Virus record (IMG/VR): IMGVR_UViG_2778261346_000012
Source of the DNA: a virus
Lineage: Duplodnaviria > Heunggongvirae > Uroviricota > Caudoviricetes
Direction: 5' to 3' (one strand)
Length of the DNA: 10,598 nt
In this document: positions 1 through 10,598 of the stretch, in pieces
How positions within the stretch are numbered: position 1 is the stretch's first letter
Layout of the letters: each line of letters begins with the position of its first letter
Position numbers and translations under genes: made by a program
Notes under the pieces: generated by a model
Database searches by the model: none
What the model was told of the DNA's origin: nothing
The model's input: the letters and a program-made list of their open reading frames with translations, nothing else

Positions 1-1164
1 ATGGCTCTAACCGATATACAAATCAAACGCGCAAAACCACAAGACAAACCATATACATTGAATGATGGGCAAGGCTTGTCATTACTCATCAACCCAGACG
101 GCTCAAAGGGATGGCGCTTCCGTTTTCGTTTTGCAGGCAAAGCGCGGCTAATGTCATTTGGTAGTTATGATCTTGTAAGCCTCGCGGAAGCACGTGAGAA
201 ACGCGATACGGCACGTAAACAGGTTGCAAACGGCATTGACCCAGTAGAAGAACGTAAGGCTCAGAAACTTGCTCAGAAATTATCAACTGAAAACTCTTTT
301 GAGGCCGTTAGCAGAGAATGGTATGCAGCAAAAGCAGACCGCTGGACAGTTGCCTATCGCGAAGAAATCATTAGGACGTTTGAACATGATGTTTTTCCTT
401 TTATTGGTAAACGACCAATATCTGAAATTAAACCGCTAGAGTTGCTTGAAGTACTTAAGCGTATAGAAAAACGTGGGGCATTGGAGAAAACAAGAAAAGT
501 ACGACAAAGATGCGGAGAAGTGTTTCGTTACGCGATCATCACTGGCCGCGCTGAATACAACCCGGCACCTGATTTAGCTATAGCGTTAGCCGCTCCAAAG
601 CAAAAACATCATCCTTTTCTCACTGCAGAAGAATTACCTTACTTCGTCAGAGATCTTGAAGCTTACACGGGCAGTATCATCACTAAAAATGCGACCAAGA
701 TTGTGATGCTTACAGGTGTAAGAACACAGGAAATGCGCTTTGCCACTTGGGAAGAAGTTGATTTAGAAAAAGGGATATGGGAAATACCTGCAGAACGTAT
801 GAAAATGCGTCGTCCTCACCTTGTCCCTTTGTCAACGCAGGTAATCGATCTTTTCAACCAACTAAAACCAATTACAGGACACTACCCATACATCTTCATA
901 GGAAGGAACAACCGCAGAAAACCTATCAGTAAGGAAAGTGTAAATCAAGTAATTGAACTCCTCGGGTATAAAGGAAGAGTTACAGGACACGGTTTTAGAC
1001 ATAGTTTATCGACAATCTTGCATGAGAAAGGCTATAACAGCAATTGGATAGAGCTACAACTAGCACATGTTGATAAAAACAGCATAAGAGGCACTTACAA
1101 CCATGCACAGTACCTCTTACAACGGAAAGAAATGCTTCAGTGGTATGCTGATTTTTTAATGTAA
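1..1164 (+). CDS. int: P4-type tyrosine integrase (site-specific recombinase)
   Basis: 387-aa ORF with ATG start and TAA stop. N-terminus MALTDIQIKRAKPQDKPYTLNDGQGLSLLINPDGSKGWRFRFRF is typical of the P4 integrase arm-binding domain. C-terminal catalytic signatures: GHGFRHSLST (H-x-x-R) and RGTYNHAQY (tyrosine nucleophile). Confidence 0.95.
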   Translation: MALTDIQIKRAKPQDKPYTLNDGQGLSLLINPDGSKGWRFRFRFAGKARLMSFGSYDLVSLAEAREKRDTARKQVANGIDPVEERKAQKLAQKLSTENSFEAVSREWYAAKADRWTVAYREEIIRTFEHDVFPFIGKRPISEIKPLELLEVLKRIEKRGALEKTRKVRQRCGEVFRYAIITGRAEYNPAPDLAIALAAPKQKHHPFLTAEELPYFVRDLEAYTGSIITKNATKIVMLTGVRTQEMRFATWEEVDLEKGIWEIPAERMKMRRPHLVPLSTQVIDLFNQLKPITGHYPYIFIGRNNRRKPISKESVNQVIELLGYKGRVTGHGFRHSLSTILHEKGYNSNWIELQLAHVDKNSIRGTYNHAQYLLQRKEMLQWYADFLM

Positions 1165-1173
1165 GGAGAAAAT

Positions 1174-3045
1174 ATGACTTATTTTACTAACACAGCAGTA
1201 AATATCGAAGGAAACAGAAAGTTAAGAACTCCTCAAATCGAGGCCTATATAAAAATAAGGGAGTTTTTCAGCGACCCTGAGCACCGTGAAGCTCTTGTGA
1301 TTCTACCTACAGGCACAGGTAAAAGTGGGTTAATTTCTATTGCACCATACGGTGTATCTCAAAAAAGAGTTTTGATTATTACACCAGGTCTTGTTACCAA
1401 AGATAGTATTAGAAAGACACAAGAAGTATTAGAAGATAACTTTTGGATAAATTATGACATTGTCTTCAGCAGTAAAGATATTCCTGTAGTTAGTGAATAT
1501 ACACCAGATATATCTTCTGAACACTTAGAACAAAGCCACATTATATTTTCTAATATACAACGTATATCTGGAAATAGAAAAAGCGCACTAATTAATAGAG
1601 TTCCAGAAGATTTCTTTGATTTTATTATCGTTGATGAAGCACATCATGCACCAGCCCAAAGCTGGCGTGATGCTCTTAAATATTTCTCTAAAGCAAAAGT
1701 TTTACATGTCACAGGAACCCCTTATCGTGGTGATGCTCAAGAAATCCCGGGAGAAATAATTCATGAAACACCATTGTCAGAAGTGATGAGAGCAAAATAT
1801 GTAAAATGGTTAAGAAAAGAAACTGTTAATGCTCATGAGTTGTACTTCACAACTCCAGATATACCTAACAAAAAACTAACTAAAGAAGATATTTTAGAAT
1901 TTAAAGATAAAGAATGGATTGAAAAAAGCATTGCCCTATCTCCGGAGTGTTCAAATGATGTGATTGAGCATAGTATTTTAAAACTAAATATACTTAAAGA
2001 AGCATCACCTAAAGTCCCACATAAAATTCTCGCTGTAGGATGTAGCATTACTCATGCCGAAGATCTAGCTAAATGGTATGAAGCAAAAGGTCTACGTGTA
2101 GTTATAATTCATAGTGAAATGGATGATGAAGTAAAAGCAGACGCTTTCCTTAACATTGAAAATCATAACGCCGATGTTGTTATATCGGTAAATATGTTAA
2201 TGGAGGGCTATGACCATAAGTATTTAAGCATTTTGGCAATCTTCAGACCTTACAGGAGCCTTAATGCATTTGCTCAAGTTGTTGGCAGAATTCTACGTGC
2301 GATTCCTGAAAACGAGATTACTGCATTTGAAATAGATAATAATGGAATTGTGATTTTTCATGAAGAAATTGGATTAAATCCAATGTGGGAAAAATTCCAG
2401 AGCGAAGTAGATAGAGCCAAAAGAACCATCAATCGAGAATATACATTTACTGATGATTATTATAGAGAAAGAGAAAACTTTTTGGCTGGTGTCGCAAGTG
2501 ATGGGGCTTACGTCAGTGATCAAGATTCTTATTTAGAAGATGTTGATTTTAACTCTTTATTCGAAGAAAAAAGAGCTGAAATAAACAAAAAAGTTGATGA
2601 ACAATTAGAAATATTCAGGAAGGCAAGTCTTGATGCAGGATTAACGTTACCTGATGACACTCTGAAATTGTTTAAAAGAGACTTAATTGAACAAGAATCT
2701 AGGAAAGCTGCTGGAGAAATAGATCAAGATCTAGTAGAAAAAAGGCCGCATCTTGCTCGTAAAAAAATGAGAGAGATCTTAACCGCTAAGATTAAAGAAG
2801 AGGCTTCTAACCTTCTGATAATAAATGGCCTCGATGAGAAAGGACAAGAACTGCAACCTATTTTTTCACCACATCTTAGGAATCTACAGACAACCGATGC
2901 AAATGATGCTATTATTGTAAAATTCATTTTGGGTAAATTGTATAGACAGTTTGGTCCTGTAAAAGATCGAGACAACCAAACTTTACAGAACTCAATTAAT
3001 TCAATACCTGAGATCTTAGCTGAAGTGTCGAGGATGTTAAAATGA
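1174..3045 (+). CDS. SF2 DEAD/DEAH-box (ResIII-like) helicase-family protein with ~240-aa C-terminal extension of unknown function; candidate defence protein
   Basis: 623-aa ORF. AGGAG RBS at 1164-1168, ATG at 1174, 9 bp after the int stop. Helicase motifs in order: PTGTGKSG (Walker A / motif I), IIVDEAHH (DEAH, motif II), VTGTP (motif III), SVNMLMEGYD (motif V-like), QVVGRILR (motif VI). C-terminal third is charged and low-complexity with no nuclease or other motif I recognise. AT-rich codon usage unlike the satellite core. Confidence 0.9.
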   Translation: MTYFTNTAVNIEGNRKLRTPQIEAYIKIREFFSDPEHREALVILPTGTGKSGLISIAPYGVSQKRVLIITPGLVTKDSIRKTQEVLEDNFWINYDIVFSSKDIPVVSEYTPDISSEHLEQSHIIFSNIQRISGNRKSALINRVPEDFFDFIIVDEAHHAPAQSWRDALKYFSKAKVLHVTGTPYRGDAQEIPGEIIHETPLSEVMRAKYVKWLRKETVNAHELYFTTPDIPNKKLTKEDILEFKDKEWIEKSIALSPECSNDVIEHSILKLNILKEASPKVPHKILAVGCSITHAEDLAKWYEAKGLRVVIIHSEMDDEVKADAFLNIENHNADVVISVNMLMEGYDHKYLSILAIFRPYRSLNAFAQVVGRILRAIPENEITAFEIDNNGIVIFHEEIGLNPMWEKFQSEVDRAKRTINREYTFTDDYYRERENFLAGVASDGAYVSDQDSYLEDVDFNSLFEEKRAEINKKVDEQLEIFRKASLDAGLTLPDDTLKLFKRDLIEQESRKAAGEIDQDLVEKRPHLARKKMREILTAKIKEEASNLLIINGLDEKGQELQPIFSPHLRNLQTTDANDAIIVKFILGKLYRQFGPVKDRDNQTLQNSINSIPEILAEVSRMLK

Positions 3046-3464
3046 TTAATGTAGCTCAAATTTTGAAAAATTTAGCTGCCTTTTGTTCAGTCAAGGGAGT
3101 TCAACCTGATGAACTTGTGACCGCTATATTTGAAAAAGAATATAAAAAAATTGAAACATACAAGGTCAATTGTCTTATTTATTTCATCATGGATTACTCC
3201 GAAAAAATTGATGATGATGAAACATTTATTTCTATGCGTTATATTTATGACGAGAATAAATCACTTATAAAAATAGAACAAAAGCTAAACAATGGACGTT
3301 ATCATACCCAGTGGGACAGAAATGACGCACTGAAGAAATATATAATAAATCAACTTTCTGAACTTCCATATCAGAAAAGAGACGAGGTCTATCAGACAAT
3401 TTTAGAAAATATACCTATTGATGCAAGTTACTCCTTACCTCCAAGGCTAAAGCTTGTTAGCTAA
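3042..3464 (+). CDS. Hypothetical 140-aa protein, translationally coupled partner of the helicase
   Basis: ATG at 3042 overlaps the helicase TGA stop (ATGA, 3042-3045). GAGGA RBS at 3030-3034. Same AT-rich composition. Followed directly by an intrinsic terminator. No motif recognised by eye. Confidence 0.75.
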   Translation: MINVAQILKNLAAFCSVKGVQPDELVTAIFEKEYKKIETYKVNCLIYFIMDYSEKIDDDETFISMRYIYDENKSLIKIEQKLNNGRYHTQWDRNDALKKYIINQLSELPYQKRDEVYQTILENIPIDASYSLPPRLKLVS

Positions 3465-3479
3465 GTTATAATTTCACTG

Positions 3480-3504
3480 AAGGCACCATTTGGTGCCTTT
3501 TTTT
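3480..3504 (+). terminator. Rho-independent terminator of the int-helicase-partner operon
   Basis: Stem AAGGCACC (3480-3487), loop ATTT, stem GGTGCCTT (3492-3499), merging into a 7-T run (3498-3504). Lies 16 bp after the 3464 stop. Confidence 0.75.
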
Positions 3505-3591
3505 CAATGCAAATATATCCAAACTCAATGTAATCTATAAAAACCGTTTTACCTCCACATTATGAATAATATAAATATACACTGGCGCGCA

Positions 3592-3610
3592 GTGCTTTCC
3601 CCGCCTCGCC
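3592..3610 (-). other. cos: cos site: 19-nt P2/P4 cohesive-end sequence
   Basis: Plus strand reads GTGCTTTCCCCGCCTCGCC, the reverse complement of GGCGAGGCGGGGAAAGCAC, which I recall as the P2/P4 cohesive end. The extended reverse complement GGCGAGGCGGGGAAAGCACTGCGCGC matches my memory of the P2 genome left end. Sits between the cargo and psu, as in P4. Confidence 0.8.
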
Positions 3611-3713
3611 CGCCCGCTTTGCAGGGCGGTTTTAATGCAGTTGCACAGTCACGCTCAGGCTGCGCCGGGAATGGCGCGGTCTGCAGAAAATGAGGCAGGA
3701 AAACGCATGCAAA

Positions 3714-3744
3714 GCCATGCACCTTATCGATGCATGGCTTTTTT
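3714..3744. terminator. Terminator-like hairpin between cos and psu; orientation ambiguous, possibly bidirectional
   Basis: Perfect 8-bp stem GCCATGCA (3714-3721) / TGCATGGC (3731-3738), 9-nt loop, then TTTTTT (3739-3744) on the plus strand. On the minus strand the same hairpin is followed only by TTTGCAT, so termination of psu here is weaker. Confidence 0.5.
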
Positions 3745-3774
3745 CAGTAAAAACGGGCGGATTTTCGGGGAATT

Positions 3775-4347
3775 TTACACAGACTGACGTGATGCCAGTT
3801 GCGCACTTTTACGCGAAAAAATCATGTTCTGCGCAGGGGTGAATTTTTCACGGCTGTCATCCACAGAAGCCGCGTCAGGCCTGAATCCGATAGTCGTTAA
3901 AATGTCGCTATCCTGTGCGGAATAATTAATTTTTTCACCCTTCGCAAGCCAGGACAGGAGGGCTTCACGCAGGGCATCTGTGGCACGCTGTATGGCACAG
4001 TTTCGGGCAATGACCGTCAGCTCACTGTAGCCCATCAGCTCCGGTGCCAGTGCCGCCGCCAGTGCTGTGCCGTGCTGCTGCATAAAATCATTCAGCCGGT
4101 CGCGGATGCTGATGTGCTGAACGGCTTCATGCGAACGAATATAACGACCGGCGGCCTGATTCACCTGCCATTTTCTGACTTCGATAATATTGCGTAATTC
4201 GTCCAGGCGGCTGACGTTTCTGCCTTCTCCTGACAGAAGCCGCAGATATTCCTGTTCGGCCGCTGCCAGCTCATTTTTGCGTTGCAGCCATGCTGCTTTG
4301 TTATTCTGACAGGTGTCAAAGGCCTGCTGTAAGGCTGTGCTTTCCAT
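3775..4347 (-). CDS. psu: Psu, polarity suppression protein (Rho antagonist / capsid decoration)
   Basis: 190-aa ORF, ATG start. Sequence MESTALQQAFDTCQNNKAAWLQRKNELAAAEQEYLRLL... matches my memory of P4 Psu in both sequence and length. Last gene of the sid-delta-psu operon, next to cos. Confidence 0.93.
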   Translation of the reverse strand: MESTALQQAFDTCQNNKAAWLQRKNELAAAEQEYLRLLSGEGRNVSRLDELRNIIEVRKWQVNQAAGRYIRSHEAVQHISIRDRLNDFMQQHGTALAAALAPELMGYSELTVIARNCAIQRATDALREALLSWLAKGEKINYSAQDSDILTTIGFRPDAASVDDSREKFTPAQNMIFSRKSAQLASRQSV

Positions 4348-4420
4348 CGTTATCTCTTTCTCATCATGCTGAAGAATAAAAATACGGTGTGCGGCGACGG
4401 CCGGGGTTAACCGGCAGCCT

Positions 4421-4921
4421 TCATTCCAGACGCAGCGAATATGATTGTGTTTTTAACCGTACTGGCGGCAGTTCCTGTTTTTCATGCAGGCGTTCTGCCA
4501 GTTCGTCCGGCGTGACCGGGCGGACAATGAAGCGGGTGATGGTCTGAAGCGTTTTAAACACCAGACCACAGCCCGGATCCGTGCACACATAAAAACGCTC
4601 GGTGACTTCCTGAGACAGACGCCGCGATGTTCTTGACAGTGCAAGGCCTTTACATCTCCGACAACAATATCCGGTAACAAGCATTCTTTTCGGGCGTTTC
4701 ATACTGCCGGAGGCTGACGTCAGTGAATCGCGGTATCTCTGTTTGCCTGAAATGTATTCCATTCCTGAATCTTTACAGTCAGAGAAAAAGCTTTCACTCG
4801 CTTCAAATGTCGCAGAGCAATAAATATTCCGGCACTGTGCAATCATTATCTTGGTGCCATCGTCCATGAAATGTGCGCGACGGGTGTGAGCAACATGTCC
4901 ACACGACGGGCAGTAAATCAT
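4421..4921 (-). CDS. delta: Delta, late-gene transcriptional activator (tandem Ogr-like zinc-finger domains)
   Basis: Chosen start is the internal ATG at 4921-4919 (MIYCPSCGH...), giving 166 aa, the P4 Delta length. It overlaps the sid TGA stop (ATGA) and has a GAGGA RBS about 10 nt upstream. The ORF-track start at 4978 is a GTG that would overlap sid by 60 nt. Two Ogr-like Cys clusters are present: CPSCGH...C..C and CCRRC...C..C. Confidence 0.88.
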   Translation of the reverse strand: MIYCPSCGHVAHTRRAHFMDDGTKIMIAQCRNIYCSATFEASESFFSDCKDSGMEYISGKQRYRDSLTSASGSMKRPKRMLVTGYCCRRCKGLALSRTSRRLSQEVTERFYVCTDPGCGLVFKTLQTITRFIVRPVTPDELAERLHEKQELPPVRLKTQSYSLRLE

Positions 4922-5652
4922 GACAGCAGTCCTCTGGCCTTCAGCTCTGCTCCCTGCTGGTCTATTTTGTCCTGCCACACCTTGCGCTGTGCCGGTGTGC
5001 CTGCCACCTCATAATCCATGTGCGGAAGTGTTGCCGCTGACAGTCCGGTCAGCCGGAGAACCGGCTCACCGGTGAGGCTGATTTGCATCTGTTTAATTTT
5101 CTGTTCCAGCGATGATTTCACCTGCTGCATGACAGCCTTTTCCGGTGCGACATAGCCCTGATGGCCGGTGGTGTTGGCGAGCGGATTTTCCTGTACCAGG
5201 ATGCTCAGATGCATTGCCCGGACAAGCGCCTCACAGGTTTCATTCAGGGCGTGTTCCAGCTCATGCTCTGCATACAGACTCAGAAGATGATGATGTGCCT
5301 TCCGGTAGGCGGTGGCCGTGCTGTCACACGCCCCTTTCAGGCGTTCACGTTCAAAATTCAGCACCACGGCCAGATTGTCATATTCCTGTACCAGCTCCCG
5401 GCGTGCCACGCGCTCAATGTGGCGCTGTTTCAGCTCGTCGCTCAGGACACCACCGGCTGCACGAAAGGCCGTGCGCCAGTCGTCAGCATCGTTTCCGTCG
5501 GCCTGCGTCAGCGCATTTTTTTCCTGCTCTGCCCGTTCAATGGCCGTGACGGTCTCATCCATCAGGCGGGCGTTCTCAAGATGAGCGACTCTGGCCTTTT
5601 CCAGTTGTGCCAGTGCGGGTTGCAGATATTCAGGGATGGTGTTGTCAGACAT
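4918..5652 (-). CDS. sid: Sid, capsid size determination (external scaffold) protein
   Basis: Start taken at ATG 5652-5650 (MSDNTIPEYLQ...), giving 244 aa, the P4 Sid length. GAGGAG RBS 8 nt upstream. The ORF-track start at 5670 is an upstream in-frame GTG. Confidence 0.9.
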   Translation of the reverse strand: MSDNTIPEYLQPALAQLEKARVAHLENARLMDETVTAIERAEQEKNALTQADGNDADDWRTAFRAAGGVLSDELKQRHIERVARRELVQEYDNLAVVLNFERERLKGACDSTATAYRKAHHHLLSLYAEHELEHALNETCEALVRAMHLSILVQENPLANTTGHQGYVAPEKAVMQQVKSSLEQKIKQMQISLTGEPVLRLTGLSAATLPHMDYEVAGTPAQRKVWQDKIDQQGAELKARGLLS

Positions 5653-5686
5653 TTTCCGGCTCCTCGTCACTTCAGGTTAAGAAAAT

Positions 5687-5742
5687 TGTGACGTACACCG
5701 GACAACAACACGACGCATTGCAGATGTGCCAGCCCTGACACA
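5687..5742 (-). promoter_or_regulatory. Psid late promoter region with two TGT-N12-ACA activator (Delta/Ogr) binding dyads
   Basis: TGTGCCAGCCCTGACACA at 5725-5742 and TGTGACGTACACCGGACA at 5687-5704, both TGT-N12-ACA, centred 38 bp apart. If the distal dyad is at about -55 the TSS falls near 5678, some 26 nt upstream of the sid ATG. TGT-N12-ACA at -55 is the established P2/P4 late-promoter activator site. Confidence 0.6.
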
Positions 5743-5821
5743 GGAGACTCATCCTCAGACCGGCAAGCCAGGAAAAGGTCGCAGGAAAAACCGGCTTACT
5801 GTTTGTTTTTTTATATTTTAC

Positions 5822-5925
5822 TGTTCACCTCTGTTCACCTTAATAAAAAAGATAAGTAATACAGTAAGTTAAAGGGTGAACAATCGCAGTAATGACTGTT
5901 CACCGTCTGTTCACCACTGTTCACC
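5822..5925. repeat. ori: Origin of replication (ori): six TGTTCACC type-I iterons (alpha-binding octamers)
   Basis: TGTTCACC at 5822-5829, 5832-5839, 5897-5904, 5908-5915, 5918-5925, plus an inverted copy GGTGAACA at 5875-5882. Direct copies are spaced 10-11 bp apart. Flanked by very AT-rich DNA (5805-5820 and 5935-6030). From memory, P4 alpha binds TGTTCACC octamers in ori and crr. Confidence 0.75.
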
Positions 5926-6083
5926 CGTTGATGGGCTTTTTGTGCTGTTTATTACTTTTTATTTTTATTAATTCACTGAAATAAATAAGAAAAAACGATT
6001 TGTATTTCACTATAATTTTTTCCAGCTCCTTCCAGAGCGTTTTAAAGCTATCTGGCGCTGATGTACAAAAAACGCACAGCCAT

Positions 6084-6101
6084 TGTAAGGCTGCCGGAAC
6101 A
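6084..6101 (+). promoter_or_regulatory. PLL late promoter activator site (TGT-N12-ACA dyad)
   Basis: TGTAAGGCTGCCGGAACA at 6084-6101. If centred at -55 the TSS is near 6147, about 57 nt upstream of vis and about 395 bp upstream of the predicted PLE start. That fits the literature statement, as I recall it, that PLL lies about 400 nt upstream of PLE. Confidence 0.55.
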
Positions 6102-6203
6102 AATCCCCCCTGTTGCGTCTGCCAAAAATATTCACAAAATAAAGCGCTACCCGAAGCCGGACGGACTTATCCGGTGCTGTATGGACATTAACGAGGTAGC
6201 CCG

Positions 6204-6470
6204 ATGCAAGCTGTTTTTTCTTCCCCGTCTCCCGCCCCTGTGACGCCACTGATGCCGCTGCCGGACATCACGCAGGAGCGTTTTTTACGTCTGCCGGAAG
6301 TGATGCACCTGTGCGGCCTGTCACGCTCGACCATCTATGAACTCATCCGTAAGGGGGAATTTCCGCCGCAGGTGAGTCTTGGCGGTAAAAATGTGGCCTG
6401 GCTGCACTCTGAAGTCACCGCATGGATGGCCGGCCGCATTGCCGGACGCAAACGGGGGTATGACGCATGA
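6204..6470 (+). CDS. vis: Vis, AlpA-family helix-turn-helix regulator / excision factor (P4 orf88)
   Basis: 88-aa ORF, GAGG RBS 7 nt upstream of ATG 6204. AlpA-like core [30 protein letters not shown]. Stop overlaps the eta start (ATGA). Confidence 0.85.
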
Positions 6471-7066
6471 TGATGCCCGCTCTGCAAAAACTCCCTTTTT
6501 CTGGCTTGCCTTTTTCCGGCATTTGCGGATATAGTCTTTCCGTTGCCGCAAAATCGGCAGCCGGGCGTGAGAACCCGTGTAGCTCGAAGGCGACATATGA
6601 CGCGCCATGCGTCTTTTTTTGTGTCGCAATCAATGCCACAGAGCGCCAGATTATGGTGTGGTGTGTGGTCAGTCGTGCAGATGGCATTCCGTGCATCCTG
6701 CCTGCGTCCGCTCATTATGCCGCAGAGTCAATGGTAGCTCAGGCGGGGCAGCCTCCGGGCTGGCCGGTATTCTTCGAGGCCGGTATTCTCACCCCCGTCT
6801 GGGCTATCGCCATCGAGCGTGAGAACTCCGGCGATAGCAGTTATTTGCTACTCGAAGGAGGCTGCCTTATGGCTACAACCCTTACCCCCTCACACCCTGA
6901 ATTTGTCTTTGTGTTTGCGGCTGTCCGTCGCGCAGACCGTCATCCCCGTATCTGTATGCTTCGCACCGTCGCCGGTGATGAACGCAGTGCCCGCCGTTCC
7001 CTTGTCCGTGACTATGTGCTCTCCCTTGCTGCCCGTCTGCCGGTGGTGGAGGTGTCCCGTGCGTAA
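6467..7066 (+). CDS. eta: Eta (P4 orf199); reading frame spans PLE, the cI RNA region and the nested kil gene
   Basis: 199-codon ORF beginning with three consecutive ATGs (6467-6475). This fits my recollection of P4 eta as 197-199 aa with three candidate start codons. Whether the whole frame is translated is uncertain because an RNA gene and promoter lie inside it. Confidence 0.6.
6506..6535 (+). promoter_or_regulatory. PLE, candidate constitutive sigma70 early promoter
   Basis: -35 TTGCCT (6506-6511), 18-bp spacer, -10 TATAGT (6530-6535). Predicted TSS near 6542, just upstream of seqA. Confidence 0.5.
6565..6590 (+). promoter_or_regulatory. seqA-like immunity target in the PLE leader
   Basis: GCGTGAGAAC...CTCGAAGG. 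Both blocks are complementary to the seqB core inside the predicted CI RNA (CTTCGAG...TTCTCAC at 6772-6792) and recur at 6817-6858. Confidence 0.5.
6737..6804 (+). ncRNA. cI: CI immunity RNA (P4 cI / C4-type antisense RNA), boundaries approximate
   Basis: A 12-bp closing stem (GCTCAGGCGGGG 6737-6748 pairs with CCCCGTCTGGGC 6793-6804, including 2 G-U pairs) encloses about 44 nt that contain the seqB-like segment complementary to the upstream and downstream targets. About 68 nt, close to the ~69-nt size I recall for P4 CI RNA. Lies between PLE and kil as in P4. Confidence 0.5.
6817..6858 (+). promoter_or_regulatory. seqC-like immunity target overlapping the kil translation initiation region
   Basis: GCGTGAGAAC (6817-6826) and CTCGAAGG (6851-6858) repeat the seqA blocks. 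The second block overlaps the kil RBS AAGGAGG (6855-6861). Confidence 0.5.
6869..7066 (+). CDS. kil: Kil, 65-aa protein nested in-frame in the 3' end of eta
   Basis: In-frame ATG at 6869 with an AAGGAGG RBS 7 nt upstream gives exactly 65 codons to the shared TAA stop. Matches my recollection of P4 kil as a 65-aa product and the first translated gene downstream of PLE. Confidence 0.6.
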
Positions 7067-7346
7067 TAAAAAAGCCCCTCAGACCGTCTCAGCGCGTCAT
7101 GACGCCCGTGAACACCTCAGCATTGAGGCTTACCATAAGCTCAACCGCGCCAGCGCCGTATCCCAGTTTGTTGGGGGTGATTTGATTCACCGTGAACTCT
7201 CCGGCCTGCATCAGCTCTACATTCCGCATATTTTCAGCTACCTGAATGAAGATATTGATTTTGTGCTGAATGAACTGAAAGCCAAAGGCCTGTGCCGCGA
7301 TTTTCTCGCCCAGCAGAAAGACCGGGGAGACAGGACGCATGTTTGA
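7059..7346 (+). CDS. epsilon: Epsilon, helper-prophage derepressor (anti-repressor of the P2 C repressor)
   Basis: GTG start at 7059 with a GGAGG RBS (7048-7052) 6 nt upstream, overlapping the eta/kil stop. 95 codons to TGA 7344-7346, matching the ~95 aa I recall for P4 epsilon. The ORF-track frame extends upstream to 6819 but overlaps kil and lacks a convincing start there. Stop overlaps the orf151 ATG. Confidence 0.55.
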
Positions 7347-7794
7347 TTTTCCCCAGCCCGGTGAGATTTACCGTTCTGCCGGTTTTCCCGATGTGGCCGT
7401 GGTCGGCATTCTGGAAGACGGTATTCCGTGGGAAATGCCGTACCGCTGCCCGGAAATTGTCTGGAACCCGTACCGCCGTAAATTCAGTATCCTTGTGCGT
7501 ATCCTCGCTGACGGACGCACCACAGACATCCCGCTGGGGCGTTTTCTGCGGGAATTTACCTGTGACCGTCCTGACCTGTTTAAACGCAGCCCCGTAAACC
7601 GGCATGCGGTACTGAAAGAAATGGCCGGAGACCCGGAATTACAGAAATGGCGGGAAAAATATCTGGATATTTACCCGCAGGACACTGTTCCGGTCAGCCG
7701 GGCAGCACCGGTGGCGCGGGAATGGCGGGAAATTCCCCGCACGGAGCCTGACCCGGAAACCACCCCGGATAACAGTTACCGCAATTATCTGTAA
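7339..7794 (+). CDS. Conserved P4 left-operon protein (orf151 equivalent), function unknown
   Basis: 151-aa ORF, ATG start overlapping the epsilon stop. Size and position match P4 orf151 as I recall it. Confidence 0.75.
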   Translation: MFDFPQPGEIYRSAGFPDVAVVGILEDGIPWEMPYRCPEIVWNPYRRKFSILVRILADGRTTDIPLGRFLREFTCDRPDLFKRSPVNRHAVLKEMAGDPELQKWREKYLDIYPQDTVPVSRAAPVAREWREIPRTEPDPETTPDNSYRNYL

Positions 7795-7929
7795 TTAAAA
7801 AACGACCCCCGAAAAATTAAATGTGCGTATTCGCGCAGGGATACGCACGTCTTCAGGAGACGCAGATATGCCTTATCAGTTAATGCAACCGGCACGGAAT
7901 GCAGTCATCTGTCACAGGGAGAAAAGCAA

Positions 7930-8250
7930 ATGAAAACACCCTTACCGCCCGTCTTACGCGCTGCCCTTTACCGTCGCGCTGTCGCCTGTGCCTGGCTGAC
8001 CGTGTGCGAACGTCAGCACCGCTACCCGCATCTCACCCTTGAGTCACTGGAGGCGGCCATCGCCGCTGAGCTGGAAGGCTTTTATCTGCGCCAGCACGGT
8101 GAGGAAAAAGGGCGTCAGATAGCCTGTGCCCTGCTGGAAGATTTAATGGAATCCGGCCCCCTGAAGGCCGCGCCGTCGCTGTCCTTTCTCGGGCTGGTTG
8201 TGATGGATGAACTCTGTGCCCGTCACATAAAAGCGCCGGTACTGCACTGA
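7930..8250 (+). CDS. Conserved P4 left-operon protein (orf106 equivalent), function unknown
   Basis: 106-aa ORF, AGGGAG RBS 8 nt upstream of ATG 7930. Immediately upstream of alpha. Confidence 0.7.
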
Positions 8251-8264
8251 AGGAGAACAACACC

Positions 8265-10598
8265 ATGAAAATGAACGTAACCGCCACCGTCAGCCATGCG
8301 CTCGGCCACTGGCCGCGTATTCTCCCGGCGCTGGGGATTCAGGTGCTGAAAAACCGTCATCAGCCCTGTCCGGTCTGTGGCGGGAGTGACCGCTTCCGTT
8401 TTGATGACAGGGAGGGGCGCGGCACCTGGTACTGCAATCAGTGTGGTGCCGGTGACGGCCTGAAACTGGTTGAAAAGGTGTTTGGTGTTTCCCCGTCCGA
8501 CGCGGCCGCAAAGGTGGCTGCCGTGACCGGCAGCCTGCCCACGGCTGACCCGGCAGTGACGGCCGCCGCCGGCGCTGAAACAGACGCTGCCCGGAAGAAC
8601 GCCGCCGCACTGGCACAAACCCTGATGGCAAAAACCCGTCCCGGAACCGGTAACGCCTACCTGACCCGCAAGGGCTTTCCCGGCCGGGAATGCCGGATGC
8701 TGACCGGCACACACAGAGCCGGTGGCGTGAGCTGGCGCGCCGGTGACCTTGTGGTGCCACTGTATGACGACAGCGGCGAACTGGTTAACCTTCAGTTAAT
8801 CAGTGCTGACGGCCGTAAGCGCACCCTGAAAGGCGGACAGGTCAGGGGCACCTGTCACACCCTTGAAGGACAGAATCAGGCCGGAAAACGTCTGTGGATA
8901 GCGGAGGGATACGCGACCGCACTTACCGTACATCACCTGACCGGTGAAACGGTGATGGTGGCGCTTTCTTCCGTGAACCTCCTTTCTCTGGCCAGCCTTG
9001 CCCGGCAGAAGCATCCGGCCTGTCAGATTGTCCTTGCCGCAGACCGTGACCTCAGCGGTGACGGCCAGAAAAAAGCCGCCGCAGCCGCAGATGCGTGTGA
9101 GGGCGTTGTTGCCCTGCCGCCGGTCTTCGGTGACTGGAATGATGCCTTCACGCAGTACGGCGGGGAAGCCACCCGTAAGGCCATTTATGATGCCATCCGG
9201 CCACCGGCTGAAAGCCCGTTCGACACCATGAGCGAAGCGGAGTTTTCCGCCATGAGTACCAGCGAAAAGGCCATGCGTATCTATGAGCATTACGGCGAGG
9301 CGCTCGCGGTCGATGCCAACGGCCAGCTTCTGTCCCGCTATGAAAATGGTGTCTGGAAGGTGCTGCCGCCACAGGACTTTGCCCGGGATGTGGCCGGGCT
9401 GTTTCAGCGTCTGCGCGCGCCGTTCTCCTCCGGGAAAGTGGCCTCCGTGGTGGACACCCTGAAGCTGATTATTCCGCAGCAGGAAGCCCCCTCCCGCCGC
9501 CTGATTGGCTTTCGTAACGGCGTGCTCGACACGCAGAACGGCACGTTCCACCCGCACAGTCCGTCACACTGGATGCGCACCCTGTGCGATGTGGATTTCA
9601 CCCCGCCGGTGGACGGTGAAACGCTGGAGACCCACGCCCCCGCGTTCTGGCGCTGGCTTGACCGTGCCGCCGGTGGCCGTGCGGAAAAACGCGACGTGAT
9701 TCTGGCCGCACTGTTTATGGTGCTGGCAAACCGCTACGACTGGCAGCTCTTTCTGGAGGTGACCGGTCCCGGCGGCAGCGGCAAAAGTATCATGGCCGAA
9801 ATAGCCACCCTGCTGGCCGGGGAGGATAACGCCACGTCGGCCACCATTGAGACGCTGGAATCCCCGCGTGAACGTGCCGCGTTAACTGGCTTCTCACTGA
9901 TACGCCTGCCGGACCAGGAAAAATGGAGCGGCGACGGAGCCGGACTCAAGGCTATCACCGGCGGCGATGCGGTGTCCGTTGACCCGAAATACCGGGATGC
10001 GTACTCCACGCATATCCCGGCGGTGATTCTGGCCGTGAACAATAACCCGATGCGCTTCACCGACCGCAGCGGCGGCGTGTCACGCCGGCGGGTGATTATT
10101 CACTTCCCGGAACAGATAGCCCCGCAGGAGCGCGACCCGCAGCTTAAGGACAAAATCACCCGCGAGCTGGCGGTCATCGTGCGTCACCTGATGCAGAAGT
10201 TCAGCGACCCGATGCTCGCCCGGTCACTGCTTCAGTCCCAGCAGAACTCAGACGAGGCACTGAACATCAAACGGGATGCCGACCCGACGTTTGATTTTAT
10301 CGGCTATCTGGAAACCCTGCCGCAGACCAGCGGCATGTATATGGGGAACGCCAGTATCATCCCGCGTAATTACCGTAAATACCTCTATCACGCCTATCTG
10401 GCCTACATGGAGGCAAACGGCTACCGGAATGTACTCAGTCTGAAAATGTTCGGGCTGGGGCTGCCGGTGATGCTGAAGGAATACGGACTGAATTACGAGA
10501 AGCGCCATACCAAACAGGGGATACAGACCAACCTGACACTGAAAGAGGAAAGCTACGGCGACTGGCTGCCAAAATGTGACGCCCCTGCAACAACCTGA
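8265..10598 (+). CDS. alpha: Alpha, multifunctional primase-helicase replication protein
   Basis: 777-aa ORF, the P4 alpha length. AGGAG RBS 9 nt upstream. N-terminal zinc ribbon CPVCGGSDRFRFDD...YCNQCG. Primase/TOPRIM-like WIAEGYATALTV and LAADRDLSGDGQ. Walker A VTGPGGSGKS in the helicase domain. C-terminal region is expected to bind the iterons. Confidence 0.95.
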   Translation: MKMNVTATVSHALGHWPRILPALGIQVLKNRHQPCPVCGGSDRFRFDDREGRGTWYCNQCGAGDGLKLVEKVFGVSPSDAAAKVAAVTGSLPTADPAVTAAAGAETDAARKNAAALAQTLMAKTRPGTGNAYLTRKGFPGRECRMLTGTHRAGGVSWRAGDLVVPLYDDSGELVNLQLISADGRKRTLKGGQVRGTCHTLEGQNQAGKRLWIAEGYATALTVHHLTGETVMVALSSVNLLSLASLARQKHPACQIVLAADRDLSGDGQKKAAAAADACEGVVALPPVFGDWNDAFTQYGGEATRKAIYDAIRPPAESPFDTMSEAEFSAMSTSEKAMRIYEHYGEALAVDANGQLLSRYENGVWKVLPPQDFARDVAGLFQRLRAPFSSGKVASVVDTLKLIIPQQEAPSRRLIGFRNGVLDTQNGTFHPHSPSHWMRTLCDVDFTPPVDGETLETHAPAFWRWLDRAAGGRAEKRDVILAALFMVLANRYDWQLFLEVTGPGGSGKSIMAEIATLLAGEDNATSATIETLESPRERAALTGFSLIRLPDQEKWSGDGAGLKAITGGDAVSVDPKYRDAYSTHIPAVILAVNNNPMRFTDRSGGVSRRRVIIHFPEQIAPQERDPQLKDKITRELAVIVRHLMQKFSDPMLARSLLQSQQNSDEALNIKRDADPTFDFIGYLETLPQTSGMYMGNASIIPRNYRKYLYHAYLAYMEANGYRNVLSLKMFGLGLPVMLKEYGLNYEKRHTKQGIQTNLTLKEESYGDWLPKCDAPATT

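Follow-up and report, generated by a model that had tools for sequence, protein, structure and literature searches.

A P2/P4-type cos site, very likely functional, in a P4-like phage satellite that carries putative defence genes in Escherichia coli

The segment at positions 3585-3645 of the DNA analyzed here (hereafter the window, meaning the entire stretch of 10,598 nt) is very likely the functional cos site of a P4-like phage satellite. We base this view on an exact 19-mer that chance does not explain, a conserved block surrounding it, a backbone that is 98% identical to that of P4, full-length core genes, immunity RNAs, the crr element and a fitting genome size. Together with its defence genes, the element very probably still spreads in capsids that it would steal from P2-type phages.

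The cohesive end, its conserved block and the GC hairpin

The sequence GTGCTTTCCCCGCCTCGCC can be read directly from the letters at 3592-3610 of the plus strand; the window contains a single perfect copy (0 mismatches) of its reverse complement, GGCGAGGCGGGGAAAGCAC, where chance predicts only 0.01 matches even with three mismatches tolerated. The very same 19-mer makes up nt 1-19 of the P4 record (X51522 / NC_001609), is annotated as cosL/cosR of P2 (AF063097), and is quoted for P2-related phages as their 5' cohesive end (PMC3931495). The earlier note had read 3592-3610 as the exact reverse complement of the P2/P4 cohesive end; this is correct, with 0 mismatches to the P4 and P2 records. The 19-nt cohesive end, or close variant of it, that typifies P2/P4-type (Peduoviridae) cos sites is hence found at 3592-3610 on the minus strand. 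The last base of the P4 record aligns with window position 3611 and its first base restarts at 3610, which places the two sites at homologous positions. Terminase is predicted to nick between 3611 and 3610 on the minus strand and between 3591 and 3592 on the plus strand, two cuts 19 nt apart that would leave 5' overhangs of 19 nt.

The alignment with the P2 and P4 cos regions that the earlier note had proposed returned the 19-mer without a mismatch and, in addition, a common block. When the window and the circularized junctions of P4 and P2 were aligned three ways, this one block emerged (TGCA, TGCATTAAAACCGCCC, G and AAGCGGGCG, followed by the 19-mer and TGCGCGC), and no similarity among the three junctions was detected beyond it. 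The block occupies about 61 nt of the minus strand (3585-3645), reads TGCAACTGCATTAAAACCGCCCTGCAAAGCGGGCG, the nick, GGCGAGGCGGGGAAAGCAC and TGCGCGC, and corresponds to the published 55-bp cos, which we know from papers citing Ziermann and Calendar 1990 (PMC9594776, PMC3931495, PMC2231350). Matches in other elements of E. coli genomes start and stop at positions equivalent to 3585-3645, in agreement with the cited 55-bp cos.

P4 shares the entire 19-nt end and 59 of the 61 block positions with the window. In P4, too, cos follows psu at the corresponding place and includes the psu-distal hairpin. The two sites differ at 3623, in the stem/loop region, where P4 has C and the window T, and in the base following the 19-mer, which is T in the window and in P2 but C in P4. 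The 80 nt beside cos on the psu side hold six substitutions relative to P4, the C>T change at 3623 being the one within the conserved block and the other five being found farther into this side, at a distance of 25-70 nt. Across cos, past GCGCGC, P4 and the window are unrelated, with gop/beta/cII in P4 and the helicase cargo in the window; homology to other satellites likewise stops 7-9 nt beyond the 19-mer. P2 has the identical 19-mer and shares TGCATTAAAACCGCCC, AAGCGGGCG, the 19-mer and TGCGCGC with the window, whereas it has no homology to the window outside the block and lacks the upstream GTGCA half-site. The cos site of 186-type Peduoviridae has GGCGTGGCGGGGAAAGCAT.

A broader sample was obtained by scanning IMG/VR with GGCGNGGCGGGGANAGCA, which yielded 118 usable sites (93 on gpQ loci, 14 on psu loci and 11 unclassified). 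In an ungapped alignment of 95 distinct P2/P4-type cos sites (alignment A1), the window conforms to all invariant columns and to all those conserved to at least 90%, and the C>T change at 3623, which is also present in other P4-like contigs, was the sole deviation from P4 noted in the block. The block of about 55 bp characteristic of Peduoviridae cos sites (TGCATTAAAA and AAGCGGGC plus A or G, then the 19-mer and TGCGCGC) is present in the window. The exactness of the 19-mer and the agreement with the conserved columns of the 95 sites bear out the earlier view of a bona fide P2/P4-type cos. That the 19-mer arose by chance, or is the relic of a decayed island without any role in packaging, is an explanation of negligible probability, given the chance expectation of 0.01 matches, the homologous position of the 19-mer in a complete, 98%-identical P4 backbone, and the conservation of the 61-nt block around it.

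The outer edge of the block (3635-3646, minus strand) is formed by a short inverted repeat, GTGCA-AC-TGCAT, whose consensus in the 118 sites is atGCAacTGCAT and whose TGCAT half is conserved in alignment A1; it is a candidate protein-binding element. The family consensus of this repeat, ATGCA-NN-TGCAT (columns 1-10 of the alignment), is conserved in most P2/P4-type cos sites, and half of it is present in P2. The flanks beyond the 55 bp have been suggested to affect efficiency (PMC9594776). Further out on the minus strand (3651-3680, ACCGCGCCATTCCCGGCGCAG), an 8-bp GC inverted repeat of P4 (ACCGCGCC/GGCGCGGT) is cut down to 5 bp by two substitutions, and many P2-like sites have a GCCAG..CTGGC repeat about as far from the nick. 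Another inverted repeat, AGCCATGCA/TGCATGGCT, flanked by runs of A and T, is located between psu and cos (3713-3745) and is found in P4 as well (about 11496-11522). The exact P2/P4 cos 35-mer gave six matches in species-representative genomes and was restricted to Escherichia apart from bins of metagenome-assembled genomes (MAGs). These latter occurrences are on short contigs in MAGs of Bacillota, Clostridiales and Lachnospiraceae (L129, L130, L132), and most likely represent mis-binned Escherichia phage or satellite DNA.

Part of the cos block can be folded into a GC hairpin on the plus strand (3610-3633), which a scan for terminator-like patterns picked up; its arms are CCGCCC (3610-3615) and GGGCGG (3624-3629), separated by an 8-nt loop and followed by TTTT (3630-3633), and base 3610 is common to the 19-mer and the first position of the stem. 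The earlier note had presented this hairpin and its T run as an extra feature adjacent to cos. The coordinates are exact and the hairpin is real, but it is a part of the 55-bp cos and it is not structurally conserved. Its minimum free energy (−14.7 kcal/mol) corresponds to a z-score of −0.40, and 65 of 200 shuffled sequences fold at least equally well, a stability that is unremarkable for so GC-rich a stretch. Only 20 of the 118 related sites have all six pairs of the stem; most of the P2-like sites sampled have GGGCA, nick, G and CCGACC as their arms, which leaves the hairpin incomplete there. Across the 95-site alignment, 64.6% of the cells are paired in the stem as against 64.4% in shuffles, without an excess of compensatory double changes, and neither shuffles nor slid registers provided a signal, so that the stem has no covariation support. 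The 3' arm (GGGCG, nick, G) borders on the nick and has a conserved sequence, the 5' arm varies without compensation (CCGACC, GCGACC, GCGATG and others), and the A/T run is nearly invariant irrespective of whether a site can form the stem. No RNA family was found at cos in Rfam. The hairpin was consequently discarded as a conserved structure. Since the complete stem is rare, covariation is lacking and the stability is that of shuffled sequence, it is best viewed as arising incidentally from a conserved sequence that serves protein recognition and cleavage; judged from these comparisons, the hairpin and T run are the right half of the conserved recognition/cleavage block and no independent RNA or DNA structure.

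One may also ask whether 3610-3633 serves mainly as an intrinsic terminator against read-through from int and the cargo into psu in the antisense direction, with the overlap with cos being secondary. Its terminator-like pattern on the plus strand downstream of the cargo operon would fit such a role, as would the fact that P2 and P4 possess an identically oriented copy of this stem. Yet a much stronger terminator-like hairpin (3479-3500, plus strand; 9-bp stem, T7) already follows the cargo operon directly, and no terminator is annotated at the cos hairpin in the P4 or P2 records. With a stability no better than that of shuffled sequence, a full stem in 20 of 118 sites, no covariation, and a 3' arm and A/T run that are conserved as sequence, we consider a primary terminator function improbable. 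As a part of cos, the hairpin may still moonlight as a weak back-up terminator.

Architecture and chromosomal sites of the satellite

From position 3611 to its end at 10598, the window forms on the minus strand one continuous match of 98.0% to P4 4636-11624 (6,988 nt). All seven P4 core components by which P4finder/SatelliteFinder recognizes a Type A satellite are present (integrase, psu, delta, sid, alpA/vis, epsilon in the ash region, and alpha), and their order, int, then psu-delta-sid, then alpha, is that of P4. In tblastn comparisons, alpha, sid, delta, psu, epsilon and vis are full length and 97.6-99.1% identical to their P4 counterparts; with orf106 and orf151 included, the full-length set spans 97.6-100%, and the cI open reading frame is 91% identical. 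The helper-exploitation operon on the minus strand (3775-5652) consists of psu (3775-4347; Pfam Psu), delta (4421-4921; Pfam Ogr_Delta) and sid (4918-5652), none of them truncated and each 97.6-98.9% identical to its P4 counterpart. The left operon on the plus strand (6204-10598), whose members are 98.9-100% identical to P4 apart from the cI open reading frame, begins with vis/orf88 (6204-6470), assigned by Pfam and the P4 match, and continues with epsilon (7059-7346), orf151 (7339-7794), orf106 (7930-8250) and the alpha primase-helicase (8265-10598). It also contains three RNAs that score above the Rfam gathering threshold: c4-a1b1 (6529-6581), isrK (6542-6619) and the C4/CI immunity RNA (6727-6814).

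Both replication elements of P4 are represented. The ori region aligns with that of P4, with a diverged stretch of type-2 repeats, and crr, with 120-nt repeats at a spacing of 180 nt, follows alpha just outside the window in the near-identical copy of strain RM12581 (L004). Substitutions relative to P4 cluster at about 6017-6097 (P4 9138-9218; the ori type-2 repeats) and at about 6537-6609 (P4 8626-8698; the a1b1/isrK RNA region), and the rest of the backbone is diverged by about 1%.

The left part of the window starts with a full-length tyrosine integrase of 387 amino acids (1-1164, plus strand; Pfam Arm-DNA-bind_3, Phage_int_M and Phage_integrase) that is specific for selC (tRNA-Sec) and only 38.6% identical to P4 Int in tblastn comparisons. 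The same integrase protein adjoins tRNA-Sec in strains NCTC11151 and VG888-46E9. P4 gop/beta/cII are absent, and their place is taken by a hotspot cargo of 2.3 kb (1174-3464, plus strand) comprising an SF2 helicase of 623 amino acids (1174-3045; Pfam ResIII and Helicase_C) and its partner, a 140-aa protein that belongs to no family (3042-3464). The start codon of the helicase lies 9 nt past the integrase stop on the same strand (1164-1174), and the cargo may be co-transcribed with int. PADLOC gave weak matches of the cargo to models of Type IV and Type I restriction enzymes, and the NCBIfam and PDB matches of the helicase cover its motor domains only; about 220 C-terminal residues are without a recognized domain. 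A Table S1 entry of Rousset 2022 (PMC9122126) lists this pair as 'ResIII/Helicase_C + hypothetical WP_000220867 + WP_000611230', and the same source describes the defence hotspot of P4 as lying right next to cos in the interval from psu to int. The architecture of the window, with int, variable cargo, cos and psu-delta-sid, is the one described for P4-like defence hotspots (PMC9122126, PMC8628076, PMC13586616), and nothing essential differs from what these reports describe. The NAR 2026 study (PMC13586616) characterizes a system, Crouga, as a ResIII/DEAD/Helicase_C protein, a domain description comparable to that of the cargo helicase.

Nucleotides 1-3,800 of the window are 100% identical in at least 13 of the E. 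coli genomes listed, most of them O145 or O145:H28, and the whole window is 99.6-99.9% identical there; the element is a P4-type satellite of E. coli from cattle and outbreaks. Because the att sites fall beyond the window's ends, the boundaries of the element were analyzed on near-identical copies. In NCTC11151 and VG888-46E9, int, the helicase, the 140-aa protein and the P4 backbone directly follow tRNA-Sec, and a 21-nt direct repeat, GACTCCTGTGATCTTCCGCCA, which is the 3' end of tRNA-Sec, bounds the element at selC. The unit measures 11,249 bp in NCTC11151 (L134), 11,247 bp in VG888-46E9 (L137) and 11,255 bp at a secondary site in O145:H28. Flanked by att repeats and within the 10-12 kb expected of such satellites, this unit of about 11.25 kb compares with the 11,624 bp of P4 and with a limit of about 12 kb reported for the small capsid (PMC9122126), and P4 cosmids of 4.7-10 kb have been packaged (PMC2231350). 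Repeats of the form ATATGTATA-N3-ATGTGTATA (L004 10949 and 21986 in RM12581) were considered as the att core and rejected, the real core being the tRNA-Sec 3' end GACTCCTGTGATCTTCCGCCA; they are more likely arm-type sites of the integrase.

In O145:H28 strain RM12581, the element interrupts a hypothetical gene between mscS and argO, a secondary attB (L004 about 10830/10831 and about 22078). Its attL reads CCGCCATC joined to TTCCGCCA and its attR CTGTGATC joined to GGTGCTCG; in the sister outbreak strain RM12761 (O145:H28), the gene is uninterrupted and the empty site reads CCGCCATCGTTGTGCTCG (L126 about 1931-1935). The elements of RM12581 and VG888-46E9 differ at 8 of 11,226 nt (99.93% identity), and window 3585-3700 is identical in VG888-46E9, so that a near-identical element occupies two chromosomal sites in unrelated strains, tRNA-Sec in VG888-46E9 and mscS/argO in RM12581. 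Of the in silico findings, this presence of one element at two sites argues most strongly that it is not a decayed remnant; with the core genes all full length, it upholds what the earlier note had concluded on this point. Sequence identity, completeness, size, att sites and the two chromosomal locations are all direct observations, and at the level of sequence the element has every feature of a packageable satellite that was examined.

O145:H28 strains harbor a further element of this kind: in strain 16003 (L136 2840-13985), a second P4-like satellite resides at selC, directly upstream of the LEE island. Its cargo consists of GapS4a and two hypothetical genes, and its integrase is 90% identical to that of the window, with the first ~100 amino acids identical and the divergence following later.

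Predicted packaging, helper phages and excision

The packaging biology of P2 and P4 is known to involve closed-circle substrates, the terminase and a Sid-dependent capsid (PMC2231350, PMC9122126). Applied to the element in the window, Int and Vis would excise it and alpha would replicate it from ori/crr, giving a covalently closed circle of about 11.25 kb. The terminase (gpM and gpP) of a P2-type helper would recognize this circle and open it at cos by the two nicks, whereupon the linear DNA would enter a capsid reduced by Sid to the dimensions of the satellite. Once injected, the DNA would become circular again by annealing of its 19-nt ends. The helicase and the 140-aa protein, a putative defence cargo located beyond cos in the P4 hotspot, would travel with the element. 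Cleavage, packaging and transfer are thus predictions from the sequence.

The cos of phage lambda is also cut by terminase to 5' cohesive ends and also serves both packaging and re-circularization. It has 12-nt ends, a separate cosB/cosQ organization and concatemeric substrates, and we know of no sequence similarity between lambda cos and the P2/P4-type. P2/P4 cos differs from it in its 19-nt ends and in the use of closed monomer circles (PMC2231350).

Potential helpers are widespread, as a search with the WPhi Q-P-O-N-M module found a P2-type Q-P-O-N-M module in 1,759 of 5,426 complete E. coli genomes; no O145 record was present among the 60 matches listed of these 1,759 genomes. WPhi is a Peduovirus, and WPhi-like prophages classified as 'intact' have been reported in nearly all O145 strains (PMC6881001). 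Two further cos-like places exist in O145 chromosomes, and these, combined with that report, provide an indirect indication of a helper prophage in the same O145 chromosome as the satellite.

An intact cos may not by itself set this particular copy free. The satellite of O145:H28 sits at a secondary attB, which it would have entered because selC was already taken, and has almost no common att core; its excision could be so rare that the copy is effectively locked in the chromosome; given the preference of the P2 terminase for closed circles, a single unexcised cos would then yield no particles. The use of covalently closed circles in P4 packaging (PMC2231350) lends weight to this possibility. 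So does the occupation of selC in O145:H28 by the other P4-like element, followed by the LEE. The attL and attR of the secondary site share only ATC(G), some 3-4 nt of core, which is also all that these junctions have in common with the tRNA-Sec-type attP core, and the empty allele differs from attR by a 2-nt TT; for these reasons, excision from this site may be rare, inefficient or imprecise. The empty allele of RM12761 could be either ancestral or an excision product. The 99.93% identity to the copy at the primary selC site of an unrelated strain, however, indicates that the lineage moved very recently, and all genes for excision, replication and hijacking are intact. On balance, we regard a locked copy as rather unlikely, and favor a mobile element with a working cos.

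Sequence histories on the two sides of cos

Comparison of the elements in RM12581 and NCTC11151 revealed an abrupt change in relatedness. The left arm, comprising the att core, int, the cargo and cos, has 0 differences over 3,772-3,780 nt, whereas the remainder (cos, psu, alpha, crr and att) has 163-164 differences over 7,456-7,468 nt, or 2.2%; the first difference falls at window position 3623 and the last 46 nt before the att core. Since the T at 3623 is of the non-NCTC type, the junction of the two histories must lie within 3585-3622, a segment of 38 nt inside cos that includes the 19-nt overhang. Against DETEC-P836 the opposite holds, with about 30% divergence in the left arm and about 2% in the right arm, and the switch falls between 3584/3585 and 3646/3647.

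A second junction placed exactly at the att core was considered and then downgraded, as it is bounded on one side only by that last difference from NCTC11151. The position of the second junction varies, one pair having it close to att and another, that with the resident selC satellite, within int.

The right arm of the window differs from that of the resident O145:H28 selC satellite at 31 positions, none of them within 4421-6271 or 6611-9610. Between the window and RM12581, a patch at 6634-6724 contains 29 substitutions and a 9-nt indel, and here the window matches the resident selC satellite, which suggests gene conversion, possibly with a change of immunity specificity. This patch is situated between the isrK/a1b1 RNAs and the C4 immunity RNA.

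We tentatively entertain the idea, without holding it to be the probable one, that cos also acts as the physical junction at which the defence-carrying left arm (cos, cargo, int and att) is reassorted among P4-like satellites. The cohesive ends of two satellite genomes might join, or recombination might start at the terminase cut, and a second exchange near att or int would complete the event; such joining would yield chimeric circles that are directly packageable. Rousset et al. have speculated about cohesive ends as recombination substrates (PMC9122126), and the NAR 2026 study (PMC13586616) calls the mechanism of defence-locus swapping unresolved. That the hotspot has its boundary at cos was already known; added here is a single clean example where, despite homology in both arms, the switch falls within the first 38 shared nt. 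This reading draws on a handful of elements that are not independent of each other, and should in our view be treated as a lead and not as a result.

The cos site itself is an ordinary one, as expected for the well-studied P4 family, and elements of this type, including the present cargo, have already been described (Rousset 2022, PMC9122126). It turns an 11-kb island into a transducible unit. With cos intact and a P2-type phage active, a helicase-based putative defence can move among E. coli lineages, the Shiga-toxin-producing O145:H28 included. Spread enabled by cos is textbook P4 biology that has already been catalogued, and the only addition might be the switch of sequence history at cos. 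If true, reassortment at cos would account for how quickly defence loci are exchanged, and the sharpness of the switch offers a concrete and testable handle on the fast exchange of defence cargo among P4-like satellites.
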